Part shown: positions 3,659-62,213 of the stretch, in pieces
Layout: every line of letters begins with the position of its first letter
Position numbering within the stretch: the first letter of the stretch is position 1
Assembly (NCBI GenBank): GCA_964402035.1
Contig: CAYOAM010000001.1
Location: 24,261 to 88,260, forward strand
Length of the DNA: 64,000 nucleotides
Source of the DNA: an uncultured Candidatus Saccharibacteria bacterium
GTDB taxonomy: Bacteria > Patescibacteriota > Minisyncoccia > Phycocordibacterales > UBA918
Direction of reading: 5' to 3'
Notes under the pieces: generated by a model
Told to the model about the DNA's origin: nothing
The model's input: only the letters and a program-made list of their open reading frames with translations
The model's database searches: none
Made by a program: the position numbers and the translations under genes

Positions 3659-3679
3659 AAAAGCAGCATGACACTATGG

Positions 3680-4096: not shown

Positions 4097-4140
4097 TGCT
4101 GCACCTCCTTTCTGACATCGTTATAACACGTTTTTGAAAA

Positions 4141-4178: not shown

Positions 4179-4188
4179 GTGTTCTCTT

Positions 4189-5310: not shown

Positions 5311-5524
5311 TATATATATGAGCAAGATATCGTTCCGCACCCCCGTGTCTCATGGCCGTATTCTCGGGCTCGGGATTAGCGACATCTTCTCGGGAACTAA
5401 TAATTAATTAACGGCACGAGTGTACCACTAAAAAAAAGTCTTGTCGAATCGCCGTTGAGCCCTCCATTTGTTGCAAAATATCTCACAGGGTATTCATGAC
5501 AGAGATGTTTAAATCGGGTATAGT

Positions 5525-6169: not shown

Positions 6170-6240
6170 TAACATGCTACGTGACTTGGAGCTTTGCCTC
6201 CAAGAGAAGTGCGATCGTTTGCAATATGCTGATGGTATAA

Positions 6241-6717: not shown

Positions 6718-6757
6718 AATCAAGGCGCATTATGCTATGATGCCGCGTATCTAGACT

Positions 6758-9241: not shown

Positions 9242-9464
9242 ATTGCGCATTCCGAAATCTCCAGCTGCTTCGTTGCTTTCCTCGCTCAAACACTCATCGA
9301 AAGGATTGCAGCATATGCTGCTGCCTCGTATCTTCGCTCGTCAGCGCCTTGCATCTGAAAATTTCTGAGATGCGCGTCGTTGTGGAATAGTTTGTGTCAA
9401 ACCGCCAGTGCAGTTGTGTACAGCGCTGGCGGTTTTTTAGTCTTCAAACGCGTATAATGTCCCT

Positions 9465-9995
9465 ATGGCTTTTCTTTTGCCCGAAGTTGTGGCAACACAC
9501 TTTCATGTGCGTCCGGGTGACGTCGTTGCCGACCTTGGTGCAGGGAGCGGGCATTTTGCACGCATTCTTTCTCGACTCACGGGTGATAAGGGAAAAGTAT
9601 TTGCGGTTGAAATACAAAAACAGCTTGCAGAAACACTTGCAGGTATTGCACGCTCAGAGCGCCTCCTCAATGTCGATGTCGTGTGGGGAGATCTTGAGGC
9701 GCTCAATGGCACAAAAATTACGGATCACTCGGTTGATATTGCACTCCTCATTAATACTCTCTCAATGCTCGATGATAAGGCGACAGCAATTCAAGAAATG
9801 TCGCGCATACTGAAGGTTGGTGGCAAGGCGATCATTGTCGACTGGACTGATTCATTTGGTGGTTTGGGACCCCAACCGCATATGGTTGTAGGTGAAGCTG
9901 CTGCGCGAGCACTTTTCGAAGCACAGGGCTGTGTGTACGAGCGGTCATTTCCTGCGGGGGATCATCATTACGGTATTTCATTGAGAAAAACATAA
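9465..9995 (+). CDS. class I SAM-dependent methyltransferase
   Basis: VADLGAGSGHFA (motif I, GxGxG) and VDWTD acidic motifs. 176 aa. Confidence 0.6.
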   Translation: MAFLLPEVVATHFHVRPGDVVADLGAGSGHFARILSRLTGDKGKVFAVEIQKQLAETLAGIARSERLLNVDVVWGDLEALNGTKITDHSVDIALLINTLSMLDDKATAIQEMSRILKVGGKAIIVDWTDSFGGLGPQPHMVVGEAAARALFEAQGCVYERSFPAGDHHYGISLRKT

Positions 9996-10000
9996 TTTCT

Positions 10001-11308
10001 ATGGCTACACTGCGACCATTTCAAGTTATCCTCATCGGTATCTTTCTTGCGCTCGGCATCGGAGGTATTGTCATGTTTGCCTTGTTTAAAGGACCTGGCG
10101 GTAAAGACAATCCATATGGGAATAAGGTGGTGATTTGGGGTACGCTCGACGACGCTCCTTTTATTGAAACTTTGATTGCGCTTCGCGAAGTAGACAAAAA
10201 TGCTAGTGTTATTTCGTATGTTGAGAAAGACCCGCGTACCTTTGAACAGGAACTTTTAAATGCATTGGCTGAAGGACGAGGGCCTGATCTCGTGGTGTAT
10301 CCGCAGAATACACTTTTGGCGAATCAAGGAAAGATTATGGCTGTTCCGTATGCCAACTTTGATCTTCGCACGTATAGTGACACCTATATCGATGGCGCAA
10401 GTATTTTCTTGCGCCCTGATGGCATTGCAGCTCTCCCGATCGCTGTCGATCCCATGGTAATGTATTGGAATAAAGACATCTTTGCCACCAAAGGTCTAGC
10501 GCGTCCGCCCTTCACCTGGGAGGAGATGCTCTCGGTTGCGGTGCCAGCGATCGCTGAAGTCACGACCGACCGCACGATTGTGCGTCCCGCACTTGCTTTT
10601 GGAGAGTATGCAAATGTGCGCAATGCAAAAGATATCCTTGCCATGCTCTTTATCCAAGCCGGGAGCAATATGGTCATCGCGCGAAATCAAGGGTATGAAG
10701 TGGAGCTCAACAATTCAGTCGAGCAGGGTATACCGCCTGCGCTCGCAGGTCTGCGCTTTTATACGGAGTTTTCCAATCCCGCCAAGAGTGTCTATACATG
10801 GAATCGCTCCATGCCACAGGATCGCGATGCATTTCTTGCCGGTGATCTTGCTATGTATTTTGGTTTTGCGAGTGAGTACGCGTCGCTGCGCTCGGGGAAT
10901 CCCAATTTCAATTTTGATGTTGCTGATATTCCACAGGGCAGTGAAGTACGGCTGAAAAAGGGGTATGGTACCTTTTATGGCATATCGCTTATGCGCAATT
11001 CTCAGAATGTCGCTGGTGCATACAAGGCACTTTTTGCGCTTACGGGACCTACACAAGTTGCCACCTATGCTAGGACGTTACGTGTTGGCGGTGTGTACCG
11101 CGCTTCGTTTAACGGTATCCCCCAAGATCCATTTTTGGCCGTCGTAGCACGTACTGCCTTGATTGCACGGGGGTGGCTTGATCCAAACCGCAATGCAAGC
11201 GACAATGTCTTTAGGCAAATGGTCGAGGATGTGACGTCGGGCCGCATCGAGCTTAGTTCTGCGATTAAAGACGCTGAGGGTCGATTGCAGCAGTTGGTGG
11301 GAGGGTAA
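10001..11308 (+). CDS. membrane-anchored extracellular solute-binding-protein-like protein (ABC-type SBP family 1-like)
   Basis: N-terminal TM segment, then KVVIWGTLDDAPFIETL...GPDLVV, which is typical of family 1 SBPs. No permease or ATPase genes are adjacent. Confidence 0.4.
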   Translation: MATLRPFQVILIGIFLALGIGGIVMFALFKGPGGKDNPYGNKVVIWGTLDDAPFIETLIALREVDKNASVISYVEKDPRTFEQELLNALAEGRGPDLVVYPQNTLLANQGKIMAVPYANFDLRTYSDTYIDGASIFLRPDGIAALPIAVDPMVMYWNKDIFATKGLARPPFTWEEMLSVAVPAIAEVTTDRTIVRPALAFGEYANVRNAKDILAMLFIQAGSNMVIARNQGYEVELNNSVEQGIPPALAGLRFYTEFSNPAKSVYTWNRSMPQDRDAFLAGDLAMYFGFASEYASLRSGNPNFNFDVADIPQGSEVRLKKGYGTFYGISLMRNSQNVAGAYKALFALTGPTQVATYARTLRVGGVYRASFNGIPQDPFLAVVARTALIARGWLDPNRNASDNVFRQMVEDVTSGRIELSSAIKDAEGRLQQLVGG

Positions 11309-11318: not shown

Positions 11319-11996
11319 ATGAAATGGATTATTATCTTTGCGGTCGTATTACACTTATTTTCAATTACTGTTGTAGTGCAGGCGCAGACATGGGGAGGGG
11401 CAAAACCAACGGTACAAGAATGGGGTGGGGCTCCGCTTGACCCGACATTAACCAATGAAAATAATGGTGGTGTATTGGGTGATATCAATCAGAACACACA
11501 GCCCGCTTCATATTCGGGTGGCGAAGGGTCACCTGGTGGTTATACTGGTGGTGAAGGTTCTCCATACGATTATGCAGGAGGAAAAACTAGTGCACCAACG
11601 ACCAAGACGGGTACGGTAGATGGGGGCGAAAAGCCCGGTACGGTCGACGGGGGAGATCTTCTGCGTCCCGGGGAAGATGGTGCTGGTTTTGGTCCTGCTG
11701 GTAGAGATGGTGGTGGCAACATAGGAGGCTCAATCTCACTCCAGAATCCTTTAAAGGCGACATCAATCCAGCAATTCTTTTTGATGATCATAGACATCAT
11801 GCTCGTCTTTGCGGTGCCGATCATCGTCTTCTTTCTCATCCTCGCCGGTTTCAAATACGTGACCGCGCGTGGCAATACGGAGCAAATAAAGCAGGCTACG
11901 ACTGCACTCACGTGGGCGCTCGTGGGAGGTGTGCTCATTTTGGGAGCAAAAATATTACTCGAAGTCATTCAAAATACTGTCGATGCGCTTCGCTAA
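11319..11996 (+). CDS. secreted Gly-rich protein with a C-terminal TrbC/VirB2-like two-helix pilin-type domain
   Basis: Signal peptide, a GG/GT low-complexity region, then hydrophobic helix, GNTEQ loop and second helix (TALTWALVGGVLILGA). Confidence 0.5.
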   Translation: MKWIIIFAVVLHLFSITVVVQAQTWGGAKPTVQEWGGAPLDPTLTNENNGGVLGDINQNTQPASYSGGEGSPGGYTGGEGSPYDYAGGKTSAPTTKTGTVDGGEKPGTVDGGDLLRPGEDGAGFGPAGRDGGGNIGGSISLQNPLKATSIQQFFLMIIDIMLVFAVPIIVFFLILAGFKYVTARGNTEQIKQATTALTWALVGGVLILGAKILLEVIQNTVDALR

Positions 11997-12321
11997 ACTC
12001 GCGCCGTATCTGTCATATGCTGGCGTTTGCAGCAGCTTTGTCATTTCTGTTTTTTTTCCACATGCTCTCTATGCGGCGACCTTTGCAAGTCTGGTAAACA
12101 GTTTTCTCGGAGTACTCGGTCTTATCATCCCCCTTATCTTTGCCCTCACATTTTTGGTCATCGTCTGGGGTGTAGTGCAGGCATGGATCCTGAATGCAGG
12201 TAATGCCGAAAAGGTGAGTGAAGGACAGATGATAGCACTCTGGGGCATTATTGGTCTTGTCGTCATGGCGGGCATGTGGGGTCTCATTGCGCTTGTACGC
12301 ACTTCGTTATTTAGTTTTTAG
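11983..12321 (+). CDS. TrbC/VirB2-like small two-TM protein (pilin-type)
   Basis: Signal peptide ending AxA. LIFALTFLVIVWGVVQAWILNAGNAEKVSEGQMIALWGIIGLVVMAGMWG. The ORF is open from 11929 but overlaps the upstream gene; the ATG at 11983 is the likely start. Confidence 0.5.
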   Translation: MRFAKLAPYLSYAGVCSSFVISVFFPHALYAATFASLVNSFLGVLGLIIPLIFALTFLVIVWGVVQAWILNAGNAEKVSEGQMIALWGIIGLVVMAGMWGLIALVRTSLFSF

Positions 12322-12419
12322 AACCCATGGGCCTGTACACAGCCAGTATGCTCAATATCTGCGCATTTGCTATACTGTACCTATCCATTTATTGGGGTAA
12401 TTATTGTTTAACTTCTTCT

Positions 12420-12785
12420 ATGTTAAAGAAAATTGGTTTTATCGGACTTTCATTTCTTCTTCCAGCATTCGCCTTCGCGCAGTCTCCGGCGGGTAATTTG
12501 GGCTACTTTGGTAACTTTGCAAATGAGGCAATCAAAGTAGTCAATAATATTTTAATTCCTCTTGTATTTGCACTAGCTTTTTTGGTGTTTGTGTGGGGGT
12601 TGCTAAAGTACTTTATTTTTGGGGGTGGTAATACAGAGAGTCAAGAGCAAGGAAAACAACTCATGATCTGGGGTGTTGTAGCGTTCGTGGTCATGGTGTC
12701 GCTTTGGGGTATCGTAAGTGTCATTAGTACCAGTCTCCAGATAGGAGGTGGTACGGTTAAGATTCCGGCACCTCTCACCAGATAA
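12420..12785 (+). CDS. TrbC/VirB2-like small two-TM protein (pilin-type)
   Basis: MLKKIGFIGLSFLLPAFAFA signal. LVFALAFLVFVWGLLKYFIFGGGNTESQEQGKQLMIWGVVAFVVMVSLWG. Confidence 0.5.
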   Translation: MLKKIGFIGLSFLLPAFAFAQSPAGNLGYFGNFANEAIKVVNNILIPLVFALAFLVFVWGLLKYFIFGGGNTESQEQGKQLMIWGVVAFVVMVSLWGIVSVISTSLQIGGGTVKIPAPLTR

Positions 12786-12844
12786 GGGTCTTTTCTACAT
12801 GATCGCTGTTTTTTGTTGGAGTCAACATTAATGGCTTTAGTGGT

Positions 12845-14350
12845 ATGCCTAGAAATAGTTCAGTCCTTATAAAAACTACTGCCGGTACAGTATTGGCGGT
12901 AGTTTTGCTATTCGACTTTTTGTTTGCAATACAGGTGCAAGCTGCGGTCAGTACTCGGGTTTCGCAAGTATCTTATTTGGACGGATATGCACAGGTTGGT
13001 GCGGTTGGTGCGTCTGATGAACAAAATAAAGTAGTAGGGAATACGCAAACGCAGAAAGGGGCTCAGGCTCTCGATCCTACACAGAAGACAAGCAATGCTA
13101 TCCCTGCAACAAACAACACTTCACCTGAAAGTGTTCCCGATATCTCAAACGGTTGGTCAGAGTTCTTTAGTAAGACTGCACCAGAAAACTTTGCTTCGGC
13201 TACGCCACAGGAGTCTTATCAGTATGATAATAATCAGAGACCAATAACTAATCCAAATAGTATCCCGCAACAAATAACTCCTCCTGCACAGAAGACCCCT
13301 GTATCAGACACGGTCGAAGATTCATATCAATATGGTGCAGCCAAAGAAGAGTATCAGTATGCGCCTGATGATCGGCAAGGTACCAAGCAGACAGGGGAAA
13401 ATTATGGGTACGCTAACGTGAATCCGTCGCCAAATACACAGGGTGTAACCAATAGCAGTAACAGTAATTTCGGCAGTAGGTATGCGGGTACATTCAATAG
13501 CGAGGATCTCAATTGGGGATTTGGAATCTTGGGAACAGTGATGCCTTTCGGTGGTCTTATTGGTTTAGGTGTGCGCGGTCTGATTGCTTCAGGAATTCCG
13601 GTTACCTATGATTGGGAATTAGCACCACCGCCTAAAGATCTTACGACAGACGATGAGGCCAATGGACTGTCGCGAAGTGGCTTTGATCCTGTGACGGGTA
13701 TGGCAACTGGTGAAAGAAGGGGTGATATATCAGTATCGAGCGCACCACTGGATCCTCCAAAAGATGATTTTGATGCACGTATGGATCGTGCAATGGCGGA
13801 GATTGCAGCAGATAAAGCAGCAGGCAAAGGAAATCCTCCTGGCGAACTTGACTCAACGCAGACGGGAGGGCTCATTGGAGGCATTGCTGGATTTTTTGAT
13901 GGTCTTAGTAAAAGCATCGGTGACCTATTTGGATTTGGAGAGGACGCACCAACATCGGGCGTATCTACGCCAGGTCAATCGACATCCGTAGAGGTCGGTG
14001 CGGTGAGTGGAGAGGCACCCCCATCGACTAACGGAGACCTTGAAACGAGTAGGCCAGGTCCAGGTACCAACAGCGCACCTTCGAGCAATGCCACTGCTCC
14101 AGATTATGGGCCCGCTTTGGGTCCATCACATGGTCCAGGTAGTCCAGCTGTTGAAGTACCATCAGCTCCAGGTGGAGCACCTCCGAGTGGTGGACTTGTT
14201 GATATTGATGAAAGCGGCATACCAGGTTCGTCGAATTTTTCTGGATTTAGCGGTTCGACTGAAATCGAGGGCGGTGATGTTGAGGTCGGTGGCGATGCAC
14301 CGGATGGCGGAGAAGGTGAGGGAGGGGATGGCAGCGATGGGGGAGAATAA
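12845..14350 (+). CDS. large secreted/surface low-complexity protein (501 aa)
   Basis: N-terminal signal/TM segment. Q/N/P/S-rich and Gly/Asp-rich regions, with an internal hydrophobic segment (GILGTVMPFGGLIGLGVRGLIASGIP). Embedded in the pilin-like cluster. Confidence 0.45.
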   Translation: MPRNSSVLIKTTAGTVLAVVLLFDFLFAIQVQAAVSTRVSQVSYLDGYAQVGAVGASDEQNKVVGNTQTQKGAQALDPTQKTSNAIPATNNTSPESVPDISNGWSEFFSKTAPENFASATPQESYQYDNNQRPITNPNSIPQQITPPAQKTPVSDTVEDSYQYGAAKEEYQYAPDDRQGTKQTGENYGYANVNPSPNTQGVTNSSNSNFGSRYAGTFNSEDLNWGFGILGTVMPFGGLIGLGVRGLIASGIPVTYDWELAPPPKDLTTDDEANGLSRSGFDPVTGMATGERRGDISVSSAPLDPPKDDFDARMDRAMAEIAADKAAGKGNPPGELDSTQTGGLIGGIAGFFDGLSKSIGDLFGFGEDAPTSGVSTPGQSTSVEVGAVSGEAPPSTNGDLETSRPGPGTNSAPSSNATAPDYGPALGPSHGPGSPAVEVPSAPGGAPPSGGLVDIDESGIPGSSNFSGFSGSTEIEGGDVEVGGDAPDGGEGEGGDGSDGGE

Positions 14351-14385
14351 GATGCGAGAGCTTTATATTGGTGTATTATAGAACT

Positions 14386-14862
14386 ATGGTTTTAAAACAT
14401 CTTGTGCTTCGAGTATCCGCTCTAGTAACGGTTATCGGAGTGCCGACTTTTGTATTTGCACAAGACCCCTCGTTTGGAGGAATAGGTCGTCTTATTAGTG
14501 ACGTACTTTCGCTAATAGAATGGTATCTCATTCCGCTAGTTTTCTCTCTCTCCTTTCTTCTTTTTTTGTGGGGTCTCTTTAATTTCTTTTTTGTAGGTGG
14601 AGGAAATGCGGAGTCACGAGAGGCGGGACGTCAGTTGATGATGTGGGGAATTGTAGCGTTTGTCGTTATGGTTTCTATATGGGGTATTGTTTCTGTAGTA
14701 GCCTATAGTTTTGGTTTTTCAGGGGGATATGTACCCCCATTGCCATCGATTCCAATGCCTGGTGGTGGGTCGGGAGGTGGTGGAGCCCCTATGCCACCAC
14801 CAGCTGCGCCACCTGTTTCAGGTGGCCCAACCGCAATGCCGTGGGAGCCGGGAATCTATTAA
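14386..14862 (+). CDS. TrbC/VirB2-like small two-TM protein with a Gly/Pro-rich tail
   Basis: Signal peptide. LVFSLSFLLFLWGLFNFFFVGGGNAESREAGRQLMMWGIVAFVVMVSIWG. The TTG at 14368 or the ATG at 14386 could be the start. Confidence 0.5.
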   Translation: MVLKHLVLRVSALVTVIGVPTFVFAQDPSFGGIGRLISDVLSLIEWYLIPLVFSLSFLLFLWGLFNFFFVGGGNAESREAGRQLMMWGIVAFVVMVSIWGIVSVVAYSFGFSGGYVPPLPSIPMPGGGSGGGGAPMPPPAAPPVSGGPTAMPWEPGIY

Positions 14863-14865
14863 TGT

Positions 14866-15153
14866 ATGATTGCATTCGCACAAGAACATATCGTGTACGC
14901 CCAGTCTTTTCTGGATAAGATAAAAGCTGTTATTCTCTATCCGCTCATCTCGCTTATGCTTGGTGTAGCTGTCGTCGTATTTCTCTGGGGGATTTTTGAA
15001 ATGGTGATGCACGCAGAAAATAGCGAAGCGCGAAGTACGGGTCGTACACATATGCTTGCAGGTATTATAGGGATCGTGGTCATGCTCTCTGCACTCACGC
15101 TACTGCGCATCGCTGCAAATACGTTTGGGGTTGAGGTGCCTTCAGGAAGTTAA
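14866..15153 (+). CDS. TrbC/VirB2-like small two-TM protein
   Basis: LMLGVAVVVFLWGIFEMVMHAENSEARSTGRTHMLAGIIGIVVMLSAL, the same helix / GN-E loop / helix pattern. Confidence 0.45.
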   Translation: MIAFAQEHIVYAQSFLDKIKAVILYPLISLMLGVAVVVFLWGIFEMVMHAENSEARSTGRTHMLAGIIGIVVMLSALTLLRIAANTFGVEVPSGS

Positions 15154-39544: not shown

Positions 39545-40384
39545 TTAACTCCAAAGAGACAGGGTGTCATCCTTGAGAGTCATGAAAGAATTAAAAGTGA
39601 GTCGGATTTGGCTAGAACGAATCGAGTCTATTTGGTGAAAGTTTCGAGTTCGAAAGATAATCAAGTCACCAGAAGCGGGGAAGACTCTGGTTGGTTTCTC
39701 GTTTTCAAGGAAGGTCGGATCAAATCCATTAGGACCTTTTTCAAGGATGTCTTTATTATAGACTTCGTCTTCAGAAACCCATGGATGATTATAAATATTA
39801 AGTTCCCCCCCGGCATTTGGCATTTGGAGGTATAACACTAAACCGAATTGTTCCTCAGACTCTGCTACTTTCCATCCAGGGAGCTGGACGGGGGCATAAT
39901 CAAAGTGCAGGGTACTCTTGGCACCCATAGCACGAATAAGTCCAGTAAAGTACTGAGCTTGATTCATGCTCGGTTCCTGCGCTATTGTTATTTTGTAATC
40001 TGCGGAAAACGTACCAATTATTTTTTGGATTGGATCTGGCACTCCGTGAAATATCTTCTCTAGAGTAGCGGTAGCCTCGGCGACACGTGAGAAATATAGT
40101 GCTTTGCCGTTCTCTTTGGAGTGATATTCTGTTGCGCTTATTCCAATGCGGCCCTGTTTATTTTCTGAATTTACATACCAAGCGATGCTTTGTCTATCGA
40201 TGTTCTTATCGATGACAGCGAGTTCAACTGGATGATAAAAATTCGTCACCTTAACGGCAGCAATCTGGTTTGAGGACAATAGTGGTAGCATTTTACGTGG
40301 CTCAAAGTTCTCCCCGTATGCAGTCGTCTTAATCTCCCAGTCGTTATTGTATTGCATTGTTGTGTATCCTATCACGGAATGCAT
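39545..40384 (-). CDS. putative 2-oxoglutarate/Fe(II)-dependent oxygenase
   Basis: Candidate H-x-D...H facial triad (LHFDY ... NIYNHPW) and downstream R..S (FHQIDSIRSS). Weak; based on the motif only. Confidence 0.35.
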   Translation of the reverse strand: MHSVIGYTTMQYNNDWEIKTTAYGENFEPRKMLPLLSSNQIAAVKVTNFYHPVELAVIDKNIDRQSIAWYVNSENKQGRIGISATEYHSKENGKALYFSRVAEATATLEKIFHGVPDPIQKIIGTFSADYKITIAQEPSMNQAQYFTGLIRAMGAKSTLHFDYAPVQLPGWKVAESEEQFGLVLYLQMPNAGGELNIYNHPWVSEDEVYNKDILEKGPNGFDPTFLENEKPTRVFPASGDLIIFRTRNFHQIDSIRSSQIRLTFNSFMTLKDDTLSLWS

Positions 40385-40413
40385 TTAGCTTGCCGCATGG
40401 TACTATCTTCGTC

Positions 40414-41868
40414 ATGGATCGGGTGAATATCTTGGTTATAGGAGTGGGTCCTCATGCCCAGAGGATTTATGTCCCGAAACTTGCAGGACTTGCCAGTAAG
40501 GGTGTACCTGTGCACCTGGCAGGTGTTGTTGACCTAAAGAGGCAACAGGGAGAGATCGACCAATACTTAAAGGAGAAAGGATATTCCCCAAAAACACTGT
40601 ATCTGGATTCATTTGATGAGACGACAGGAATGCCTTCGAGTATTCTAGCCATACTCAATGCTTTTGTTAAAGATTTGAATATACAAGGTGTTGTTATTTC
40701 AACGGTACCAACCGTCCATAAAGTTTATGGGCAGTGGGCTTTGTCACACGGCTTACACATTCTCATGGATAAGCCAATTTCTATGAGGAAAGGCATCAGC
40801 ACTGATGTATCTCAGGCTGCTGCTTTGATAAAAGACTATGAAGATTTGTTAGTGTTATACCAAGAGAAACAGAGTACTCACAATACAGCCTTCTCAATTA
40901 ATGTACAGCGCAGATACGAATACGGGTTTGATCTTGTAAAACAACTAATTGCAGAAACAAAGGAACGGTTTAATATGCCCGTTACTTCTATTCAGGCAAT
41001 GCACGCGGATGGTACGTGGATGTTTCCCAAAGAAGTACTGACTCAAGAATCCCACTGCCTTTTCGATGGCTACGGGAAAGTTGCCCATAGCGGATATCAC
41101 ATATTTGATATGGTATGGCAACTATACAATGCAGGGCTTGTTGAAGAAAAGAAACCTGATTCGCTGGAAATCTTGTCTTCACCACTAACACCAGCTGGTC
41201 TCAACATTGATTTGTGTGAAGACGATTATCGACATTATTTTGGGTCGGAGTATGACGCAACCACCTTTTCTGAGGCAGAATTCCAAGAAAAGGTTAAGAA
41301 CTATGGTGAATCGGATTCGTTTAATATTATCAGGCACTTAAAAAACGGCGAGAATATTTGTAATGTTTCCATTAATTTACTCCACAGAAGCTTCTCTGGA
41401 CGCTCATGGGCAGTGCCAAACACAGACAGGTATAAGGGAAATGGCCGGATCAAACATCAACATTTTATAATCCAGCAGGGGCCATTTCAGTGCATTCAGA
41501 TTCACAACTATCAATCCAAAGATTCTCACGATATCGATAACTCCCAAGAGTTTGATATCGGAGGAAACAACCATTTTGATATATATGTTTTCCGCAACAA
41601 AGGAATGTTTGGATCAGGTGAGTCTTTTTTTAAGATCTCTGCCAAGGATCTTGAAGACAAAAAACGAGAGAGCGGTCTAATCGTTGAGAATGCAAAAGAA
41701 CGAGTCATTATTGAGTTTATAGATTTTATGCTAGGTAGGATTAATAAAAGTGAGTTAAAATCAAATATTGATACACACAGCATACCCGTTAAGATGATGA
41801 GTGGAGTGTGTCAATCGGGCGCGCGTCTTCGGAAGGGAGATAATCCTCTAATACACATTTCCATATGA
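40414..41868 (+). CDS. NAD(P)-binding oxidoreductase (Gfo/Idh/MocA-like N-terminus) with a long C-terminal extension
   Basis: ILVIGVGPHAQRIYVPKLAG Rossmann GxGxxA motif at the N-terminus. 484 aa. The ORF is open from 40357 and overlaps the convergent gene; the ATG at 40414 is the likely start. Confidence 0.4.
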   Translation: MDRVNILVIGVGPHAQRIYVPKLAGLASKGVPVHLAGVVDLKRQQGEIDQYLKEKGYSPKTLYLDSFDETTGMPSSILAILNAFVKDLNIQGVVISTVPTVHKVYGQWALSHGLHILMDKPISMRKGISTDVSQAAALIKDYEDLLVLYQEKQSTHNTAFSINVQRRYEYGFDLVKQLIAETKERFNMPVTSIQAMHADGTWMFPKEVLTQESHCLFDGYGKVAHSGYHIFDMVWQLYNAGLVEEKKPDSLEILSSPLTPAGLNIDLCEDDYRHYFGSEYDATTFSEAEFQEKVKNYGESDSFNIIRHLKNGENICNVSINLLHRSFSGRSWAVPNTDRYKGNGRIKHQHFIIQQGPFQCIQIHNYQSKDSHDIDNSQEFDIGGNNHFDIYVFRNKGMFGSGESFFKISAKDLEDKKRESGLIVENAKERVIIEFIDFMLGRINKSELKSNIDTHSIPVKMMSGVCQSGARLRKGDNPLIHISI

Positions 41869-42491
41869 TAGGCTCAATTTATTTAATCGGAGGTGGTGAA
41901 ATCAGAAAGGGTGAAACTGTAGAAATTGACAATGAGTTAAAAGAAATTTGTCCCGCAAATTCAACCTTTGTTTTTTTTGGTACAGCGGCAGGGGATAGTC
42001 CAGAGTATATTCATACAATTGAGTCAATCTTTAAAAGCAATTTTAAAATCATCGCACCAACAGAAAAGGATGGTCCTGAATTTGCACTGTCTGCTATAAA
42101 ATCCGCATCAATCATTTATCTTGGTGGTGGCACGACCAAATTACTGTTAGATCTTTTTGAAAAGTGGGAGCTTGTCCAACCACTTCGTGAAGCATTAAAT
42201 CGAGATGTTCATCTTGTAGGAATGAGTGCGGGTGCACTAGCTCTTTCTACTTGGTATCTTCACGAAGAAGGAGATTCTATGGAATTACGACGCGGATGGG
42301 GTTTTGCTTCAGTCTGTACACTTGTACACGCGCAAAAAGACTCTTCTGCTCGGGCACAAATAATCTGGAAAGGTAATAAAGATGCGCATGCAACCCCTCT
42401 TATTGCAATTGGTGAAGGTGCCGCATGGCGTATAAGCTCTCACGATACTCAGAAAGTTGGAAGTGGTGAAATAAAGTATATCCAGCACTAG
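41865..42491 (+). CDS. peptidase S51 family (dipeptidase E / cyanophycinase-like)
   Basis: IYLIGGGE, IYLGGGTTKLLLDLFEKWEL and HLVGMSAGALA (the nucleophile Ser in GxSAG) match the S51 pattern. Confidence 0.55.
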   Translation: MIGSIYLIGGGEIRKGETVEIDNELKEICPANSTFVFFGTAAGDSPEYIHTIESIFKSNFKIIAPTEKDGPEFALSAIKSASIIYLGGGTTKLLLDLFEKWELVQPLREALNRDVHLVGMSAGALALSTWYLHEEGDSMELRRGWGFASVCTLVHAQKDSSARAQIIWKGNKDAHATPLIAIGEGAAWRISSHDTQKVGSGEIKYIQH

Positions 42492-42636
42492 TTTATTGAA
42501 AGCAAAGGCAACTTCAGTGAAGTATGTACTGTGGTAGTCATCCTGGCCTGACAATATCGACAGGAGACAGTATTTGTGGTATTAAAATCAAGTGTTTTGT
42601 TTTTTGTCATCGTAATTAAACTTATGGAGGTATCGC

Positions 42637-43758
42637 GTGATCACTACTCTGAAAGAGAAGTTCCTCGTTTATCATCGAGTTCGGGGATTTGGTATCTATG
42701 AATCCTTTCCATTGGTGATCAGTGATCCTACGATTCTGTTTACCAATGCCACCATAACCCCTTTCAAACCCATGTTCATGGGAGTGGAGAAGAGGGTAAA
42801 CTATGCCCTCGTGCAGAAATGTTTGCGTTTGGGTGGTGCGAGTGGGAATCTTGATACTCCACGAACAAACCCAAACTTCACTTCCTTGTTCGAAATGCTT
42901 GGAAGTGGATTGTTTGATGTCAGTCAAGATGTTGCCGTTGCTTATTTCGTTGAAGTGTTAGCTTCACTGGGTCTTCGGAGAGAAAATCTTTTGTTTACCA
43001 CCCTTGCCAACCTTGGCTTTGAACTAGCCTTGGAGCGAGCAGGGATTCGTTTGCAGCAAATCAGGGTCTTCGCTGATGCAAAGGATATCGTGCATGAATG
43101 GAGTTTTGGAGAAGGTGACCTGCATGGGTGTGGAGTAGTAGCTTGGCATGTCCCAGAAGGCTACCAGAAATCCACGTCCGACAGTGTCTTACAGGAACTT
43201 TCCCACTTCGTTCAAATCGGAAGGATAGTTCACATCGTTGGTGTTGCACGCGGGGCATCGGTGGAGACGTTCCCGTACGCTGCATACGACTTGGGGCTCG
43301 GATTGAGTCGGGTCGAACTGGCTCTCAGTGGGAATTGTGAGGTCTTCCTGCGTCCGTGGAGGGTGTTCGCAGCCCATTTTCAGGCAGTCATTGCCGGGTT
43401 GGGTAAGACGGATGCACACTACCTCGCCAATCTCTACCGGATAGTCGTTGAGCTTGTTGGTGAAGGGCTCTTGCCCGGAACAAAGAAGCAAGCCTATGCT
43501 CTCAGAAAGGTGATTCGATTGCTTATCGAGGAGATTTGGATGAAGTCAGGTACGCTCGTGGATATACCCACCGTGCTGACTGCTTCTGTCAGTACATCTC
43601 CTTCCCCAGATCTTCTCATAAGCATTTTTTCTCAAGAGGAGAAGGCTTTACGAGCAGTACTTTCTGTTGCTGCAAAAAAGCAGAGAGAGCATCCTGACAT
43701 GAGTCTAGAGGAGCTGCGTTCGACGTTCGGAATTCGTCCAAGCCTGCTCAGGCTCTAA
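42637..43758 (+). CDS. alanyl-tRNA synthetase catalytic-core homolog (373 aa; class II AlaRS aminoacylation domain only)
   Basis: DPTILFTNATITPFKPMF, QKCLRLGGASGNLD and SLFEMLGSGLFD align with the E. coli AlaRS segments DPTLLFTNAGMNQFKDVF, QRCVRAGGKHNDLE and TFFEMLGNFSFGDY. GLGLSRVELAL aligns with motif 3 (GMGLERIAAVL). The editing and C-terminal domains are absent. Confidence 0.65.
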   Translation: MITTLKEKFLVYHRVRGFGIYESFPLVISDPTILFTNATITPFKPMFMGVEKRVNYALVQKCLRLGGASGNLDTPRTNPNFTSLFEMLGSGLFDVSQDVAVAYFVEVLASLGLRRENLLFTTLANLGFELALERAGIRLQQIRVFADAKDIVHEWSFGEGDLHGCGVVAWHVPEGYQKSTSDSVLQELSHFVQIGRIVHIVGVARGASVETFPYAAYDLGLGLSRVELALSGNCEVFLRPWRVFAAHFQAVIAGLGKTDAHYLANLYRIVVELVGEGLLPGTKKQAYALRKVIRLLIEEIWMKSGTLVDIPTVLTASVSTSPSPDLLISIFSQEEKALRAVLSVAAKKQREHPDMSLEELRSTFGIRPSLLRL

Positions 43759-43924: not shown

Positions 43925-43969
43925 GCCTCTACGAAAATAACCCCATCAACTGGGGTTATTTTCAAAAAG
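43925..43969 (-). terminator. hairpin following tRNA-Tyr (gaaaataacccc-atcaact-ggggttattttc)
   Basis: It differs from the cacaaaag-type hairpin that follows other tRNAs. It lies inside the putative island end. Confidence 0.5.
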
Positions 43970-44053
43970 TGCGCCGGGTAGGATTTGAACCTACGAAGCC
44001 CTGAGGGCGACAGATTTACAGTCTGTTGCGATTGACCACTCCGCCACCGACGC
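43970..44053 (-). tRNA. tRNA-Tyr (anticodon GUA), type II with a long variable arm
   Basis: Manual cloverleaf. Acceptor GCGTCGG/CCGGCGC (one G-U pair), anticodon stem ACAGA/TCTGT with loop CTGTAAA, variable arm hairpin GCCC-TCA-GGGC, T-arm GTAGGTTCAAATCCTAC. Confidence 0.75.
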
Positions 44054-44261: not shown

Positions 44262-45089
44262 ATGATGTTCCGGATTTTATACAGCAGCACAATTTTATTT
44301 TTTGTTCCTGTTGCATATGCTGCTGCAAAGATTGTTCCTAATTGCCCAGTAAATGGCTGTCGAGCTTGCGATCTTGTGATATTGGGCAACAACCTTATAA
44401 CATTTCTTATTGGCATTGGGATTTTTGTTGCTGTGATCTCTATCGCCATCACAGCATTTCAAACAATAATAAGTGGTGAAAGTGGGGCACACGCATTGGG
44501 GAGCACAGCTACGAATATCGTCATCGGGATTATTATCATGCTTGCAGGGTGGCTGATTGTGGATACACTTTTGAAATTGTTGGTTGCTCCGGGCAAACTT
44601 GGACCGTGGAATGAAATTGAGTGTATTGAGAATCCTGGTATTGAGGAAGATCCAACTGTGGCGACAAAGCCGGGACGTATCGCATATGTTGCCGGTGGCG
44701 GTAAGGGATCGGGCGCACAATGTGGCGCAGGAAACACGGCTTGTAGTCCTGAGGCCTTGCAGGCACTTGGTATGACTCCTGCACAAGCCAATACGATGTC
44801 CTGTATTGCTATGACAGAGAGTGGTGGTTCCCCAAACGCCGTCAATAAAAATGGGGGAGCGTGCGGCACGTTCCAAATTCTTCCAAGTAATTGGAGAAAT
44901 GCTTCGCTTCATAAGGGGAGCTGTAATTCTGATGTCTCCTGTAATGACGCAACATGCAATGCGCAGGCGGCACAGTCGCTCATGGCTGGTCGCATCAAGG
45001 CAGGTAAGTCTGCGTATGGAGACTGGACGTGCCCGGGATGCAATAATAAAGCGCAGGCATGTGTCGATAAATACAATCCGGGAGGATAA
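44262..45089 (+). CDS. fusion protein: pilin-like N-terminus (CxxC + two TM helices) and C-terminal lytic-transglycosylase (SLT)-like domain
   Basis: Signal peptide, NCPVNGCRACDLVILGNNLITFL, two hydrophobic helices, then MTESGGSPNAVNKNGGACGTFQILPSNW (the SLT catalytic E-S ... GAxGxxQ pattern). Cys-rich tail. Confidence 0.5.
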   Translation: MMFRILYSSTILFFVPVAYAAAKIVPNCPVNGCRACDLVILGNNLITFLIGIGIFVAVISIAITAFQTIISGESGAHALGSTATNIVIGIIIMLAGWLIVDTLLKLLVAPGKLGPWNEIECIENPGIEEDPTVATKPGRIAYVAGGGKGSGAQCGAGNTACSPEALQALGMTPAQANTMSCIAMTESGGSPNAVNKNGGACGTFQILPSNWRNASLHKGSCNSDVSCNDATCNAQAAQSLMAGRIKAGKSAYGDWTCPGCNNKAQACVDKYNPGG

Positions 45090-45092
45090 TAT

Positions 45093-45644
45093 ATGATCAA
45101 AAATATTCTAATCATTGTTGCGTTGTGTATTGCACTGGGTCTGGGTACACTCCTTGTCGTGAGGATGTTTTCTGAGGACACGGAGCCAGTCACGGATCCT
45201 GTCGTCAATCCTTTTCCAGTATCTTCCGGAACACCGATCCACACCCCAGAAACTCTCACTATCAGCACTCTTGGTGGTCCGTCAGTGACCGTTCAAAATT
45301 TTATCGACAAAACTACGACCGCTGAAGATCCAGTAAATACCGGATACTATTATCTGGGAAATCATTTTCCCTTTGACGGATCGGTACCAGACGCCTCTGA
45401 GGAAATACCGTTTGTTATTTCATACATTGCATCAACACAATTTTTTAATATTGTGTTGTATGAAGAGCCGCTTGCAACCTCGCGCATGCAGGCAGAACAG
45501 TACCTGAAGCAAACGCTCGGTATCACCGAGCAAGAGATGTGCTCATTGCCGTATTCAGTGAGCGTGCCAAATTTTGTAAGTCCGACGCATGCCGGAGAGA
45601 GTCTCGGTTTTAGTTTTTGTCCGGACAGTGTGCCGCTGCCGTAG
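45093..45644 (+). CDS. hypothetical membrane-anchored protein (183 aa)
   Basis: N-terminal TM, between the two pilin-fusion genes. Confidence 0.4.
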   Translation: MIKNILIIVALCIALGLGTLLVVRMFSEDTEPVTDPVVNPFPVSSGTPIHTPETLTISTLGGPSVTVQNFIDKTTTAEDPVNTGYYYLGNHFPFDGSVPDASEEIPFVISYIASTQFFNIVLYEEPLATSRMQAEQYLKQTLGITEQEMCSLPYSVSVPNFVSPTHAGESLGFSFCPDSVPLP

Positions 45645-45650
45645 TTTATT

Positions 45651-46499
45651 ATGAAGAAATTTTTATTACACAGTTTGGTGCTGCTAGTCCTGCTTTTCCC
45701 AGCGATCAGCGTCGGACAGGAGGACAGTCTTTTTGTCTGCGAGGGTTGGGATTGTCAGGCATGTGATCTTGTTGAACTGGGAAATACGATCATCAATTTT
45801 GTCATCATGATGAGCGTTATTATTGCGACAATTCTTTTAGCGTATGCTGGCTTCCTCATTGTTACAGCACAAGGGGATATGGGCAAAATAAAGCATGCGC
45901 GTGAGATGTTCACGAATATAGTGATCGGTATCATAATCGTGCTTTCCGGGTGGCTCATAGTGAACACTGTCATGAAGCTGCTTGTGGGTGATGATCTACT
46001 GGGCGATGGCCCATGGTATGAAATCGAGTGTGTCGAACAGCCGGCTATCGTCCCTCCATCAACCGTCGCTGATGGTACGACGGTCGTGCCGGGAGGGCCG
46101 TCAGTTCCAGCGCCGTCCGCAGGATGCCCGAACTGCGCAACCATCGTCGCAGATGGTGTAACCTGCAAGGCAGGAGTTAATTGTACCGTTGATGCAGAGT
46201 ATGCAAAAAACTTAGGCCTCCTTGGCAAGGATTTTCCGCTGATCGTGACCGAAGGGTTTCCTCCAAAGGCAAATCATAAGGCCGCATGCCATCGAAATGG
46301 AACATGTCTCGATGTGGTCTTTTCTGATCGCAATTTTAGCGATCAAAACAAGATTAACAATTTTATTTCTGCTGCGGATAGGGCAGGCTATAGGGCGGTG
46401 TATGAACCCAACAAGGGACAGGCATGTCCCCCTGGTATGGGGAAGTCATGTCAGGCAAATGTTGCCAACGGGACTCATTTCTCACTGTATAAGAAATAA
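45651..46499 (+). CDS. fusion protein: pilin-like N-terminus (CxxC + two TM helices) and C-terminal putative peptidase M15-like (cell-wall hydrolase) domain
   Basis: VCEGWDCQACDLVELGNTIINFV, two helices, then IVTEGFPPKANHKAACHRNGTCLDVVF (H...H..G...D, reminiscent of the M15/VanY zinc site). The C-terminal assignment is weak. Confidence 0.4.
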   Translation: MKKFLLHSLVLLVLLFPAISVGQEDSLFVCEGWDCQACDLVELGNTIINFVIMMSVIIATILLAYAGFLIVTAQGDMGKIKHAREMFTNIVIGIIIVLSGWLIVNTVMKLLVGDDLLGDGPWYEIECVEQPAIVPPSTVADGTTVVPGGPSVPAPSAGCPNCATIVADGVTCKAGVNCTVDAEYAKNLGLLGKDFPLIVTEGFPPKANHKAACHRNGTCLDVVFSDRNFSDQNKINNFISAADRAGYRAVYEPNKGQACPPGMGKSCQANVANGTHFSLYKK

Positions 46500-46550: not shown

Positions 46551-46622
46551 GGGCGATTAGTTTAGTGGTAGAACATAGGTCTCCAAAACCTACGGTGGGG
46601 GTTCGATTCCCTCATCGCCCGC
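46551..46622 (+). tRNA. tRNA-Trp (anticodon CCA)
   Basis: Manual cloverleaf. Acceptor GGGCGAT/ATCGCCC, anticodon stem TAGGT/ACCTA with loop CTCCAAA, T-loop TTCGATT, discriminator G. Confidence 0.75.
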
Positions 46623-49745: not shown

Positions 49746-49881
49746 TGCGTTTCTCCCTGTCGAGGATCAAAATCCTTTCGAGTTATATAGGAAAAGAGGA
49801 CTTTGGGCAAACTTCTGTGATGGAGTGGCGGGGTCACAAAAGCAATAGTCATTGTTGCTACGCAACATCTCCTTTGTTTTG

Positions 49882-49962
49882 TGCTGGAGATGGGACTTGA
49901 ACCCATAAGCCTTGCGGCATGCGATTTTGAGTCGCACGTGTATACCATTCCACCACTCCAGC
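49882..49962 (-). tRNA. tRNA-Leu (anticodon CAA)
   Basis: Manual cloverleaf. Acceptor GCTGGAG/CTCCAGC, anticodon stem TGCGA/TCGCA with loop CTCAAAA, variable arm hairpin GCC-GCAA-GGC, T-arm ATGGGTTCAAGTCCCAT. Confidence 0.75.
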
Positions 49963-49976
49963 AATATATTCGATTT

Positions 49977-50017
49977 TACCACCTGCCTGCCGGCAGGCAG
50001 GTTCCACCACTCCAGCA
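49977..50017. repeat. 22-bp perfect palindrome acctgcctgccggcaggcaggt joined to a copy of the tRNA-Leu(CAA) 5' end (ttccaccactccagca); copy 1
   Basis: Read from the sequence. The second copy is at 50280-50320. Confidence 0.8.
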
Positions 50018-50021
50018 ATAT

Positions 50022-50261
50022 TTATTTTCCAATACTTTTCAAGAATTCTCTACCTGCACCTGACTTGAGATATTTTTCTCTTGTCCGAGCAGCTGTCCTC
50101 GTATCATATACTTCGCTGTAAATCAGAGCAACAGGCAGGTACCGCTTTGTGGTTTTACTGTATCCACTCGTATGCTCGTACAGTCTTCGCGACAAATCAC
50201 TGGTCATTCCGGTATAGTGGAATTTTTTCAGTTTATTTTCTAGAACATAGACCGTGTACAT
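50022..50261 (-). CDS. GIY-YIG nuclease family protein (79 aa from the internal Met)
   Basis: YTVYVLENKLKKFHYTGMTSDLSRRLYEHTSG matches the GIY-YIG core (Y-x-Y ... Y-x-G ... R-x-x-x-H). The ORF-track N-terminus (MLEWWNLPAGRQVV) is encoded by the flanking palindrome repeat and is rejected. Confidence 0.7.
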   Translation of the reverse strand: MYTVYVLENKLKKFHYTGMTSDLSRRLYEHTSGYSKTTKRYLPVALIYSEVYDTRTAARTREKYLKSGAGREFLKSIGK

Positions 50262-50279
50262 AGGTGCACATGTGTATAC

Positions 50280-50320
50280 CACCTGCCTGCCGGCAGGCAG
50301 GTTCCACCACTCCAGCATTT
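50280..50320. repeat. second copy of the 22-bp palindrome plus tRNA-Leu(CAA) 5' fragment (preceded by gtgtatacca, which also matches the tRNA D-region)
   Basis: ataccacctgcctgccggcaggcaggttccaccactccagca. A direct repeat of 49977-50017 flanking the GIY-YIG gene. Confidence 0.8.
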
Positions 50321-50469
50321 AATATTTTCTTCAATCAAATTTGCTCCAACTATCAGCGTTGTAGATGGTAAACCTACAATTGACTTATTTCAGCACAAAA
50401 GCTCTGTCCGTAGAGTGTATCAACAATTCACTCTATTCTCAATATTCTCTGTGATACAATGACCCCGAT

Positions 50470-57807: not shown

Positions 57808-58743
57808 ATGGCTTGGTTTACAAAAAGCACGATTCGATCGCGCCGCAGGGAAGTGCGTCAAAATAGAAAAAGGCTTATCGCTTCAAGTCTGGGCGCTTTG
57901 GCAGTGCTCCTGTTAGCAGGTGGTGTTTTTTATGGAGCTCGCCGAGAAGCCGTCACTATTTCGCACATTACGGTCGCTGGAGGTGCAACAGTCCCTCATG
58001 ATCTCATTGAAGAGCGTGTTGAGACCGTTCTTTCTGGTACGTATGCATTATTTATACCGCGACGTTTTTCTTTTTTATTCCCGAGAGAAGAGATCATCGA
58101 GGCGCTCAATAGTATTCCTCGCGTCCATAATGCTAACGTTGTACGTTCCTCTCGTGACACACTCAACGTCTCATTTGAAGAGTACGTTCCGAACGCGCTC
58201 TGGTGCGCAGATGCATCGAGTACCCAGTGCTACTTTATAGACGTGCAGGGTTTGGCGTATGCTGAGGCTCCGGCATTGCAGGGGGAAACCTTGGTGCGAT
58301 TTATTCGCGAAGAAAAAGCACCAGTGCGCGGCGAGTATGTGTACGATACAGAAAAGCTCCTTTCGCTCCGCCAGCTCTCGCAGGTCGTGCGTGACACATA
58401 CGCGCTACGGGTGCGGTCTATCACGGAAACCAAAGACCATGATCTGGTGATGCGTCTCACTGATGGTGTGAGTCTATTGATGCCGTATGATACACAGAGT
58501 GACGATGTAGTTGAAAAAATTGCCTCCATTTTAAGCGCAAAAGAATTTGAAGGTTTAGCATTGCGTGATTTTGAATATATTGACGTCCGCTTTGGAAATA
58601 AGGTATATGTACGGAAGCTTGGAGCACTTGAAGAGATTGCCGCGAAGGAAGCCGCAGAGCTAGAAAAGCAAAACATGCAGGATAGCCTATTGCCAGGAGA
58701 TGATGAAGAAGTGAGGACTTCGACAAGCACAAGTACCCGTTAA
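57808..58743 (+). CDS. cell division protein FtsQ/DivIB-like (POTRA domain)
   Basis: Basic cytoplasmic N-terminus, one TM (LGALAVLLLAGGVFYGA), POTRA-like ISHITVAGGATVPHDLIEERVE, and an acidic tail. Confidence 0.5.
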   Translation: MAWFTKSTIRSRRREVRQNRKRLIASSLGALAVLLLAGGVFYGARREAVTISHITVAGGATVPHDLIEERVETVLSGTYALFIPRRFSFLFPREEIIEALNSIPRVHNANVVRSSRDTLNVSFEEYVPNALWCADASSTQCYFIDVQGLAYAEAPALQGETLVRFIREEKAPVRGEYVYDTEKLLSLRQLSQVVRDTYALRVRSITETKDHDLVMRLTDGVSLLMPYDTQSDDVVEKIASILSAKEFEGLALRDFEYIDVRFGNKVYVRKLGALEEIAAKEAAELEKQNMQDSLLPGDDEEVRTSTSTSTR

Positions 58744-61316: not shown

Positions 61317-62213
61317 GTGGGTGGTAACGTTCTTAAGTATTGGGTTACTATGTCACGATTAAAACAGCTCCTCTTTTTAGTTGGATCTGTTTTTCTTGTA
61401 TGGGGTGGAATATGGTACTTGCGATCACTTGGTGGAGAAGGCATTTCTGTGCCCCAATTTATTGTTGCAGAACACGATCCCGAGATATCTGCTGACGCCT
61501 GGCTTCTCTTTGATATGGAGACGGGAGAGATTATCAAAGACCACAATGCATCAAAAAAAGTACCCATTGCATCGGTGACAAAACTTATGACGGCTGAGGT
61601 TGCGGTCACGTCGCTTGATCTTGATGCAACGACAACGGTATCGTGGTCCGCGATTCAAACCGATGGCCGCGCTGGACGATTGAGGGCGGGTGAGAGAATC
61701 CAGACCCGCGAGCTATTGTTTCCGCTACTGCTTGAATCATCAAACGATGCCGCAGAAGAAATTGCGGAACAATACAAAAAAAATGGCAGCTTGTCCGGAG
61801 CAATGACCCGTGAAGCAAGAAATCTTGGCATGCACGAATCTTCGTTTGCTGATGCGAGTGGTTTAGCTGACGGAAATACATCAACGGCTGTGGATCTGTC
61901 TATATTGCTTCGACACCTTTTTAATAAACAACGATATCTGTTAGATATTACGACCTTGCCACAATACGTGGGGAAGGAGCATGATTGGCTCAACAATAAT
62001 CCCGTGCATGACGAATGGGGGTATCTTGGAGGAAAACATGGCTACACCGAGGAGGCGGGACGCACATTTGCCGGTGTTTTTTTAGAACATTTAAAAGGTG
62101 GTGATAAGCGCGAGATTGGTATGGTGTTGCTGCATAGTGATGATATACGTAGTGATGTGCGTACACTCCGTACCTATCTGCGCGAGGAGGTTGCGTACGC
62201 TGTTGCCCTGTAG
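61317..62213 (+). CDS. D-alanyl-D-alanine carboxypeptidase (peptidase S11, PBP5-like)
   Basis: SVTKLMT (SxxK), ESSNDAA (SxN) and GGKHGYT (a KTG-like triad position) after a signal/TM segment. Confidence 0.6.
   Translation: MGGNVLKYWVTMSRLKQLLFLVGSVFLVWGGIWYLRSLGGEGISVPQFIVAEHDPEISADAWLLFDMETGEIIKDHNASKKVPIASVTKLMTAEVAVTSLDLDATTTVSWSAIQTDGRAGRLRAGERIQTRELLFPLLLESSNDAAEEIAEQYKKNGSLSGAMTREARNLGMHESSFADASGLADGNTSTAVDLSILLRHLFNKQRYLLDITTLPQYVGKEHDWLNNNPVHDEWGYLGGKHGYTEEAGRTFAGVFLEHLKGGDKREIGMVLLHSDDIRSDVRTLRTYLREEVAYAVAL

Follow-up and report, generated by a model that had tools for sequence, protein, structure and literature searches.

The 64,000-nucleotide stretch of DNA analysed here (the window) comes from an uncultured Candidatus Saccharibacteria bacterium (contig CAYOAM010000001.1, positions 24,261 to 88,260), and between two of its transfer RNA genes lies a cassette of three genes, which we call A, B, and C. 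The window forms part of a 452,957-bp metagenomic contig (ENA ERZ3430527 NODE_5), and its gene content and all homologues indicate an ultrasmall bacterium of the Patescibacteria. In our reading, held with rather better than even confidence, this cassette is a conserved and chromosomally fixed Patescibacteria operon encoding a pilin-anchored, two-enzyme set for opening peptidoglycan, with B as the partner of A. The three co-directional open reading frames (ORFs), all on the plus strand, fill the interval from tRNA-Tyr(gta) (43969..44053, minus strand) to tRNA-Trp(cca) (46551..46622, plus strand), the upstream and downstream boundaries of the cassette, both of which have counterparts in the related loci L003, L005, and L007. 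Gene A (44262..45089, 275 amino acids) joins a pilin-like module to a lysozyme-like/SLT domain, gene B (45093..45644, 183 amino acids) encodes an N-terminal transmembrane anchor followed by a conserved domain, and gene C (45651..46499, 282 amino acids) joins a second pilin-like module to what is predicted to be a Hedgehog/DD-peptidase-like (LAS) zinc-peptidase domain. Because the gaps are only 3 nucleotides between A and B and 6 nucleotides between B and C, we treat A-B-C as one operon. The first-pass annotation of this DNA had described two ORFs, A and C, and both are present at the coordinates it gave; the third, B, sits between these two fusion genes and was not covered by it. The features that it had reported for A and C lie far beyond chance, because each is conserved in homologues.

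Residues 167-249 of A score above the gathering thresholds of two Pfam families, SLT_3 (PF18896; 32.2 bits, gathering threshold 27) and SLT (PF01464; 29.9 bits, gathering threshold 21.3). The corresponding Cys-rich catalytic domain (44715..45086, plus strand) includes MTESGGSPNAVNKNGGACGTFQI. A word-index search with A returned 102 matches, and in an alignment of 37 homologues T185-E186-S187, G202, F204, and Q205, along with eight Cys residues, are either invariant or kept in at least 90% of the sequences. The PHROG transglycosylase and lytic tail protein families match A at E = 2e-6 to 4e-6, while among PDB sequences there is a weak match to a c-type lysozyme (E = 0.056). The SLT-like domain claimed for A in the first-pass annotation is borne out by the two Pfam scores and by the invariant E-S and G-x-F-Q motifs, and the sequence evidence supports an SLT/lysozyme-like C-terminal domain. 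The accompanying remark that such a fusion is unusual does not stand for A, as T4SS_pilin plus SLT_3 (T4SS, type IV secretion system) is a recurrent architecture in Patescibacteria and appears in the JGI product name of some A homologues, 'Type IV secretion system pilin/Lysozyme like domain'.

Single-sequence searches of Pfam, NCBIfam, PHROGs, and the PDB returned nothing for the C-terminal domain of C (46116..46496, plus strand), which contains 'H..ACHRNGTCLD' and a late 'THFS'. Structure prediction, a check that the first-pass annotation had proposed, gave a LAS zinc-peptidase fold: an AlphaFold2 (AF2) model built from an alignment of 12 domain sequences has a predicted local distance difference test (pLDDT) score of 89.2 and a predicted template modelling (pTM) score of 0.84. 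When this model was compared with the PDB by Foldseek, the N-domains of Sonic, Indian, Desert, and fly Hedgehog came top (probability 1.00), with template modelling (TM) scores of 0.55-0.62 and a root-mean-square deviation of about 3.1 Å over about 133 columns, followed by MepA (probability 0.91-0.97). Among the viral models of BFVD, the best named matches are phage 'Peptidase M15' and 'M15A' proteins (probability 0.99-1.00), and a sequence profile of the C family run against all PDB sequences matches Hedgehog N-domains only (E = 2.8e-4). Because the fold search and the profile search converge, we assign the modelled domain to the Hedgehog/DD-peptidase (LAS) fold, nearest to the Hedgehog/M15A type. 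The M15/VanY resemblance suggested by the first-pass annotation holds at the level of the LAS superfamily but not for VanY: VanY and VanX (M15B/M15D) have the superfamily and the H-x6-D motif in common with C, whereas their Foldseek matches are weak (probability 0.13-0.60, TM 0.38-0.43) and sequence or hidden Markov model similarity is absent. A VanY-type M15B identity was rejected on these grounds.

The likeness of C to Hedgehog and DD-peptidases extends from the fold (TM about 0.6) to the H-x6-D motif, the distal zinc-binding His, and the catalytic Glu. The HMMER alignment sets LIVTEGFPPKANHKAACHRNGTCLDVVFSDRN...AGYRAVYE of C opposite ...AGFDWVYYE of Sonic Hedgehog (Shh), and the 'VTEG' strand and the 'H...H.xG..xD' stretch of C align directly, at an identity to Shh of about 15-20%, whereas bacHh proteins exceed 50%. 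With the residue roles taken from Shh (PMC6027127), H214 and D221 of C, which make up the H-x(6)-D zinc motif, lie opposite the zinc ligands H141 and D148. E252, in the context 'AVYE' (Shh 'VYYE'), lies opposite the catalytic base E177, and H276, the last His, which a Cys-rich insertion of about 20 residues separates from the Glu, is the presumed equivalent of the third zinc ligand, H183. D221 and E252 never vary across 103 divergent members of the C family, in which H214 and H276 reach at least 90% conservation; T200-E201-G and H209 are further conserved residues of the domain. Besides this insertion, C differs from Hedgehog in having an extra N-terminal CxxC and disulfide elements and in being detected by no Pfam model, and the acidic Ca2+ cluster of Hedgehog and bacHh proteins is replaced (Shh 'TEGWDEDG', C 'TEGFPPKA'), with P204-P205 at least 90% conserved across the family and invariant among close homologues.

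Fourteen close homologues of C were found, and a full HMMER scan with its domain returned 933 representatives of 50%-identity clusters at E <= 1e-3 (554 at E <= 1e-10). In nearly all of these representatives, the domain forms the C-terminal part of a protein some 300 amino acids long, and in one-genome-per-species contigs it is almost confined to Patescibacteria lineages. For C too, the fusion is not rare, the pilin plus Hedgehog/DD-peptidase-like architecture being present in hundreds of cluster representatives. The C domain constitutes a large branch of the Hedgehog/DD-peptidase group, restricted to the candidate phyla radiation (CPR), that has no curated model. A few proteins with this domain are very long: P0129 (1464 amino acids), P0228 (1103 amino acids), and P0216 (767 amino acids). 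In P0228 and P0216 an internal, sub-threshold PF18895 match (17 bits) precedes the Hedgehog/DD-like domain, P0228 has additional weak, sub-threshold matches to Ig-like and WxL-interacting domains, and P0129 has no Pfam match; the three represent bigger architectures of surface proteins that contain this enzyme domain.

Both enzymes are attached to the same kind of N-terminal module. In A, the order is a signal-peptide-like start, the cysteines C28, C33, and C36, two hydrophobic helices (hydrophobic stretches at residues about 35-73 and 76-110), and W116...C121. In C, it is a signal-peptide-like start, C30, C35, and C38, two hydrophobic helices (residues about 40-75 and 85-113) separated by a basic loop (KIKHAR), and W122...C127. 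The mature module of A (44325..44624, plus strand) is recognised by hydropathy, Cys positions, and identity to the C module, and that of C (45717..46031, plus strand) by alignment, hydropathy, and a sub-threshold NCBIfam match. The signal peptides noted in the first-pass annotation are recovered as signal-peptide-like N-termini in both proteins, as is its C-x2-C pair, in CRACDLVILGNNLITF of A and CQACDLVELGNTIINF of C. C36, W97, W116, and C121 are invariant or near-invariant in the 37-homologue alignment of A, and the well-conserved positions of the C module include G93, W101, and the W...C motif. The two modules align along 107 amino acids with 50% identity (E = 3e-25) and are, judged by their sequences, paralogues; a Gly/Pro-rich linker of ~30 residues joins each to its Cys-rich C-terminal domain.

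Hydropathy and alignments agree with a VirB2-type layout of signal peptide, two hydrophobic helices, and short loop in both A and C, and the homologues place the module in a family. PF18895 (T4SS_pilin) matches 79 of the 103 diverse C-family members at E <= 1e-3, TrbC/VirB2 (PF04956) matches 8 of them, and the cassette orthologues score 32.8-40.5 bits on PF18895. Many A homologues carry PF18895 together with PF18896 in precomputed annotation, an architecture to which A belongs. C itself matches the NCBIfam 'Mbov_0395 family pilin-like conjugal transfer protein' at a sub-threshold E = 1.4e-4. By these sequence criteria the N-terminal module is probably a VirB2-like pilin hairpin of the PF18895 family, of which the copies in the window are divergent members; the pilin-like N-terminus described in the first-pass annotation is upheld by the homologue scores, with the window copies themselves sub-threshold.

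The module can be compared with plain pilins in the same window, where PF18895 identifies an array of five T4SS_pilin paralogues on the plus strand (11319-11996, 11929-12321, 12327-12785, 14368-14862, and 14866-15153). The fusions resemble VirB2/TrbC proteins and the pilin arrays of Patescibacteria in their signal peptide, two hydrophobic helices, and short loop, and in the PF18895 and occasional PF04956 matches of the module family. They differ from plain pilins in a cluster of Cys ahead of helix 1, in a further conserved Cys that follows helix 2, in enzyme domains of 130-150 amino acids, and in lying apart from the arrays as well as from any virB4. The likeness to the upstream pilins that had been claimed is thus real for the two-helix module and fails for the Cys cluster, which is absent from all five genes of the array (11319-15153). 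A gene for a 501-amino-acid, low-complexity secreted protein without a Pfam match (12845-14350) interrupts this array, a solute-binding protein gene comes before the array, and there is no virB4 nearby.

How these parts might work together can be laid out as follows. Sec would export both A and C, and the PF18895 hairpin would hold each enzyme on the outside of the cytoplasmic membrane. By analogy with VirB2, the hairpin would turn its two ends outward and its inter-helix loop inward, so that the C-terminal domains would lie outside the membrane, and the flexible Gly/Pro-rich linker of about 30 residues would let each catalytic domain reach into the wall. Extracytoplasmic C-terminal domains fit with the invariant Cys residues in both domains and in B, with the signal peptides, and with the basic inter-helix loop of C. 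A would then cleave glycan strands as a GH23/SLT-type, lysozyme-like enzyme with E186 as its catalytic residue, and C would cleave the stem peptide or cross-link as a LAS zinc peptidase with H214, D221, and H276 as ligands and E252 as general base. Jointly, A and C could open the murein mesh locally, the job of a VirB1-type bifunctional hydrolase being divided between two pilin-anchored polypeptides.

B would act in this scheme as a membrane-anchored, disulfide-containing ectoprotein that controls the lysozyme-like enzyme. Its transmembrane anchor (residues 1-28) leads through a variable linker to a conserved domain of about 120 amino acids; C150 and C176 are invariant in the alignment of its homologues, of which 25 were found, and the AF2 model has a pLDDT of 89.1. 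In each of five related loci, a B homologue stands directly after the pilin-SLT gene (5/5; hmmsearch E = 6e-31 to 3e-74). B is most likely the dedicated partner of A, whether as an inhibitor or immunity factor or as a regulator, and this is the weakest step of our reconstruction.

Several results weigh against this reading of the cassette. For the pilin module, C scores 21.4 bits on PF18895, below the gathering threshold of 26.6, and A has no match to this model at E <= 1. For the peptidase, neither the Pfam M15 families nor HH_signal match C at E <= 1, and they match none of the 103 family members at E <= 1e-3. The literal H-x-H motif of Hedgehog and bacHh proteins is also incomplete in C, which has only the second His (H276, in 'G-T-H-F-S') and Gly or Thr in place of the first. 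The third zinc ligand is, from the alignment, probably retained despite this loss, but because the first His is absent and no Pfam peptidase model matches, activity of C is not guaranteed. For the partner, B finds no family in Pfam, NCBIfam, PHROGs, or PADLOC, and its model matches no fold in the PDB, known lysozyme inhibitors included; since B has neither a relative of known function nor a structural match, its proposed role is drawn from gene adjacency and nothing else. For a link to a T4SS, no machinery genes (VirB4, VirD4, VirB6, etc.) occur in the 64-kb window, and none lies within 10 kb of the cassette in the four relatives with long flanks (L003, L005, L007, and L008), so the T4SS company suggested by the first-pass annotation is lacking over this range.

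The missing His and the missing peptidase match would also suit a C domain that is not catalytic, a pseudo-peptidase like Drosophila Hedgehog that mediates adhesion to a host wall or matrix, and the fact that its closest structures are Hedgehog ligands points the same way. We consider this very improbable. In the 103 divergent members, the three zinc ligands and the Glu opposite E177 show little or no variation, whereas Drosophila Hedgehog, for which loss of catalysis is documented, retains none of D148, H183, and E177 (PMC6027127), and the pairing of C with a glycan-cleaving enzyme is that seen in known bifunctional wall hydrolases.

The two-enzyme operon has a fixed place in the chromosome. 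We compared the neighbourhoods of homologues in five related CPR loci (L003, L005, L006, L007, and L008), four of which have long flanks (all but L006). The whole cassette, consisting of a pilin-lysozyme-like gene, a B homologue, and a second pilin-enzyme fusion, is present in 5/5, so that the search for homologous fusions proposed in the first-pass annotation found pilin-hydrolase fusions in every one. In 4/4 loci with long flanks, miaA, parB, relA/spoT, and topA adjoin the cassette, and the order tRNA-Tyr/cassette/tRNA-Trp/miaA/tRNA-Leu/parB is common to L003, L005, and L007; in L008, tRNA-Trp closely precedes the cassette and tRNA-Tyr was not found. Because it occupies the same chromosomal place in four relatives, the cassette is an old, fixed block of the core genome. 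The earlier idea of a tRNA-Tyr island has to be given up, as the GC content of the cassette is like that of the rest of the window and the order of tRNAs, cassette, miaA, and parB is kept in relatives: a tRNA island or mobile element is ruled out by the normal GC content together with conserved synteny in L003, L005, and L007 and, in part, L008. In L005, genes for a type III restriction-modification system and a large serine recombinase (1-8266) lie directly upstream of tRNA-Tyr and the cassette, and tRNA-Tyr may be an integration hotspot there, the cassette itself not being mobile. A role in anti-phage defence was considered and dropped, PADLOC having returned no match.

Such a fixed position, beside miaA, parB, relA/spoT, and topA in four loci and never beside T4SS genes, could also mark a set of housekeeping autolysins. 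The hairpin would then serve only as a borrowed membrane anchor, unconnected with any T4SS or pilus, and A, B, and C would reshape the wall of the producing cell for growth and division, with B regulating the enzymes. The unremarkable GC content of the cassette agrees with this, and so does the wall machinery of the organism itself: the window encodes a Peptidase_S11 DD-carboxypeptidase (61317-62213, plus strand; 120 bits) and FtsQ (57808-58743), which shows that the organism makes its own peptidoglycan. This synthesis counts for our favoured reading as well, and it bears on the question of self-protection. The absence of the Cys cluster from plain pilins, which sets the fusions apart as a distinct subfamily, is a further point in favour of autolysins. 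On the other side, a single-pass anchor, such as that of B, would be enough for an autolysin, whereas the two-helix module has been kept over hundreds of clusters and is matched between the fusions of one genome, which suggests more than an anchor. Repeated swaps of the peptidase domain, described next, resemble the diversification of effectors or of an arms race more than they do housekeeping. The autolysin explanation seems to us a poor prospect overall, with less to recommend it than the pilus discussed below.

The operon that we favour varies in its second enzyme. In the window, L003, and L005, the enzyme domain of the second fusion is Hedgehog/DD-like. In L006 (1096-1953, P0010), a CHAP-like domain, sub-threshold in Pfam (E = 0.008, 17 bits), takes its place, on a pilin module 76% identical to that of C and beside a B 77% identical to the B of the window; a small gene with an N-terminal transmembrane segment follows P0010 and is ended by the contig end. 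In L007 and L008, inspection by eye shows 'HAGGSAID...HWHVD' and 'HYQGTAAD...HYHV' (H-x2-G-x-A-x-D and H-x-H), for which an M15-like guess is unconfirmed by Pfam, PHROGs, or phmmer against the PDB, all without a match, and by hhalign against the C-domain profile (probability 0.3%).

The pilin modules, by comparison, are matched within genomes. In a matrix of module identities, from which the row of the L008 SLT gene was excluded, A and C of the window share 45%, against 29-34% between A and its orthologues and 41-43% between C and its orthologues, so that modules of the same genome tend, in sequence, to be at least as alike as orthologous ones. In L007, the two fusion genes (8991-9980 and 10001-10927) have 432 bp in common at 99.8% DNA identity, with pilin modules that are 100% identical and enzyme domains that differ. 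The sequences indicate that the matched modules, very recent in L007, reflect gene conversion or recent domain swapping or module duplication.

Matched modules within a genome (45% in the window, 100% in L007) are also what would be expected if both fusions had to fit the same polymer or machine. One could therefore picture an enzyme-armed pilus, in which the fusions are pilus subunits polymerised by a T4SS together with plain pilins, and in which enzymes displayed on the surface digest the wall of a host where the cells touch, for uptake or transfer during epibiotic growth. We regard this as unlikely, and we attach much the same low probability to its narrower form, in which a T4SS-built, VirB2-type pilus of a monoderm contains the fusions as minor subunits and cuts the host wall while B shields the producer. 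We are not aware of any pilus of the conjugative type that has catalytic subunits. The two pilin termini of F-type pili point outward, so a C-terminal passenger is sterically conceivable, which is a point for the armed pilus, but a globular passenger of 130-150 amino acids would probably prevent helical packing if all subunits bore one, leaving minor subunits at best. The module is well conserved (G93, W101, W...C) and appears to be a genuine PF18895 member, five plain pilin genes lie in the same window, and the pilins of S. epibionticum are essential, with a pilus proposed (PMC10633639; PMC12857230). Set against these points, the cassette has no T4SS genes near it in the window or in the four long-flank relatives, tandem gene conversion alone suffices to explain matched modules, and a dedicated B partner fits the control of an autolysin at least as well. 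The Patescibacteria pilus, moreover, has not yet been observed and is described as 'potential' (PMC12857230). The favoured reading of a membrane-anchored pair would tolerate either wall, own or host, as the target.

Among known systems, the closest counterparts of such a pair are VirB1-type hydrolases of Gram-positive bacteria, which PMC12102498 gives as TraG of pIP501 (SLT plus CHAP) and PrgK of pCF10 (LytM plus SLT plus CHAP). Like these, the cassette is predicted to pair SLT-type glycan cleavage with peptide cleavage in a membrane-tethered, extracytoplasmic setting with a conjugation-type association. It differs from them in splitting the activities over separate polypeptides, in using a VirB2-like pilin hairpin as anchor where theirs is an ordinary transmembrane segment, in having a LAS/Hedgehog-like peptidase in place of CHAP or LytM, and in lying outside a T4SS cluster with the extra conserved partner B. 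VirB1 is not recognisable in most Patescibacteria with VirB2-like pilins, and other glycosidases have been suggested as its substitute (PMC12102498). The cassette is a candidate for this missing VirB1 function and could explain the scarcity of VirB1 reported there.

The literature leaves open what the essential T4SS and the surprising VirB2-like pilins of Patescibacteria do (PMC11665869, PMC12857230), surveys score every PF18895 protein as 'pilin' (PMC12102498), and recent reviews treat these proteins only as possible filament subunits. Our findings suggest that VirB2-like 'pilins' can carry or anchor wall-breaching enzymes: a sizeable subfamily of PF18895 'pilins' would be carriers or anchors of wall-degrading enzymes, in an operon with a partner and away from T4SS genes, and a PF18895 gene should not automatically be taken for a filament subunit. 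In the searchable literature we found no account of pilin-hydrolase fusions, of a Hedgehog/DD-like pilin fusion, of the A-B-C cassette, or of its partner genes or fixed locus. The T4SS_pilin plus SLT_3 architecture is already visible as database annotation; what is new is the unmodelled branch formed by the C domain, together with B and the A-B-C cassette.

Two other regions of the window deserve mention. Downstream of the cassette, a 53-nucleotide direct repeat (49977-50029 and 50277-50329, within 49948-50329; 92% identical), with the palindrome CCTGCCTGCCGGCAGGCAGG inside it, flanks a 98-amino-acid GIY-YIG ORF (50022-50318, minus strand), and 20 nucleotides of the repeat also correspond to the 5' end of tRNA-Leu(caa) (49881-49962); the arrangement resembles a small GIY-YIG element that has inserted next to that tRNA gene. 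Upstream, at 39545-43758, lies a gene cluster unusual for a CPR genome. It includes a homologue of WelO5-like 2-oxoglutarate/Fe(II) halogenases or hydroxylases (75 bits), a 503-amino-acid GFO/IDH/MocA-like oxidoreductase, a peptidase S51, and a 373-amino-acid protein that matches only the catalytic part of alanyl-tRNA synthetase (tRNA-synt_2c).

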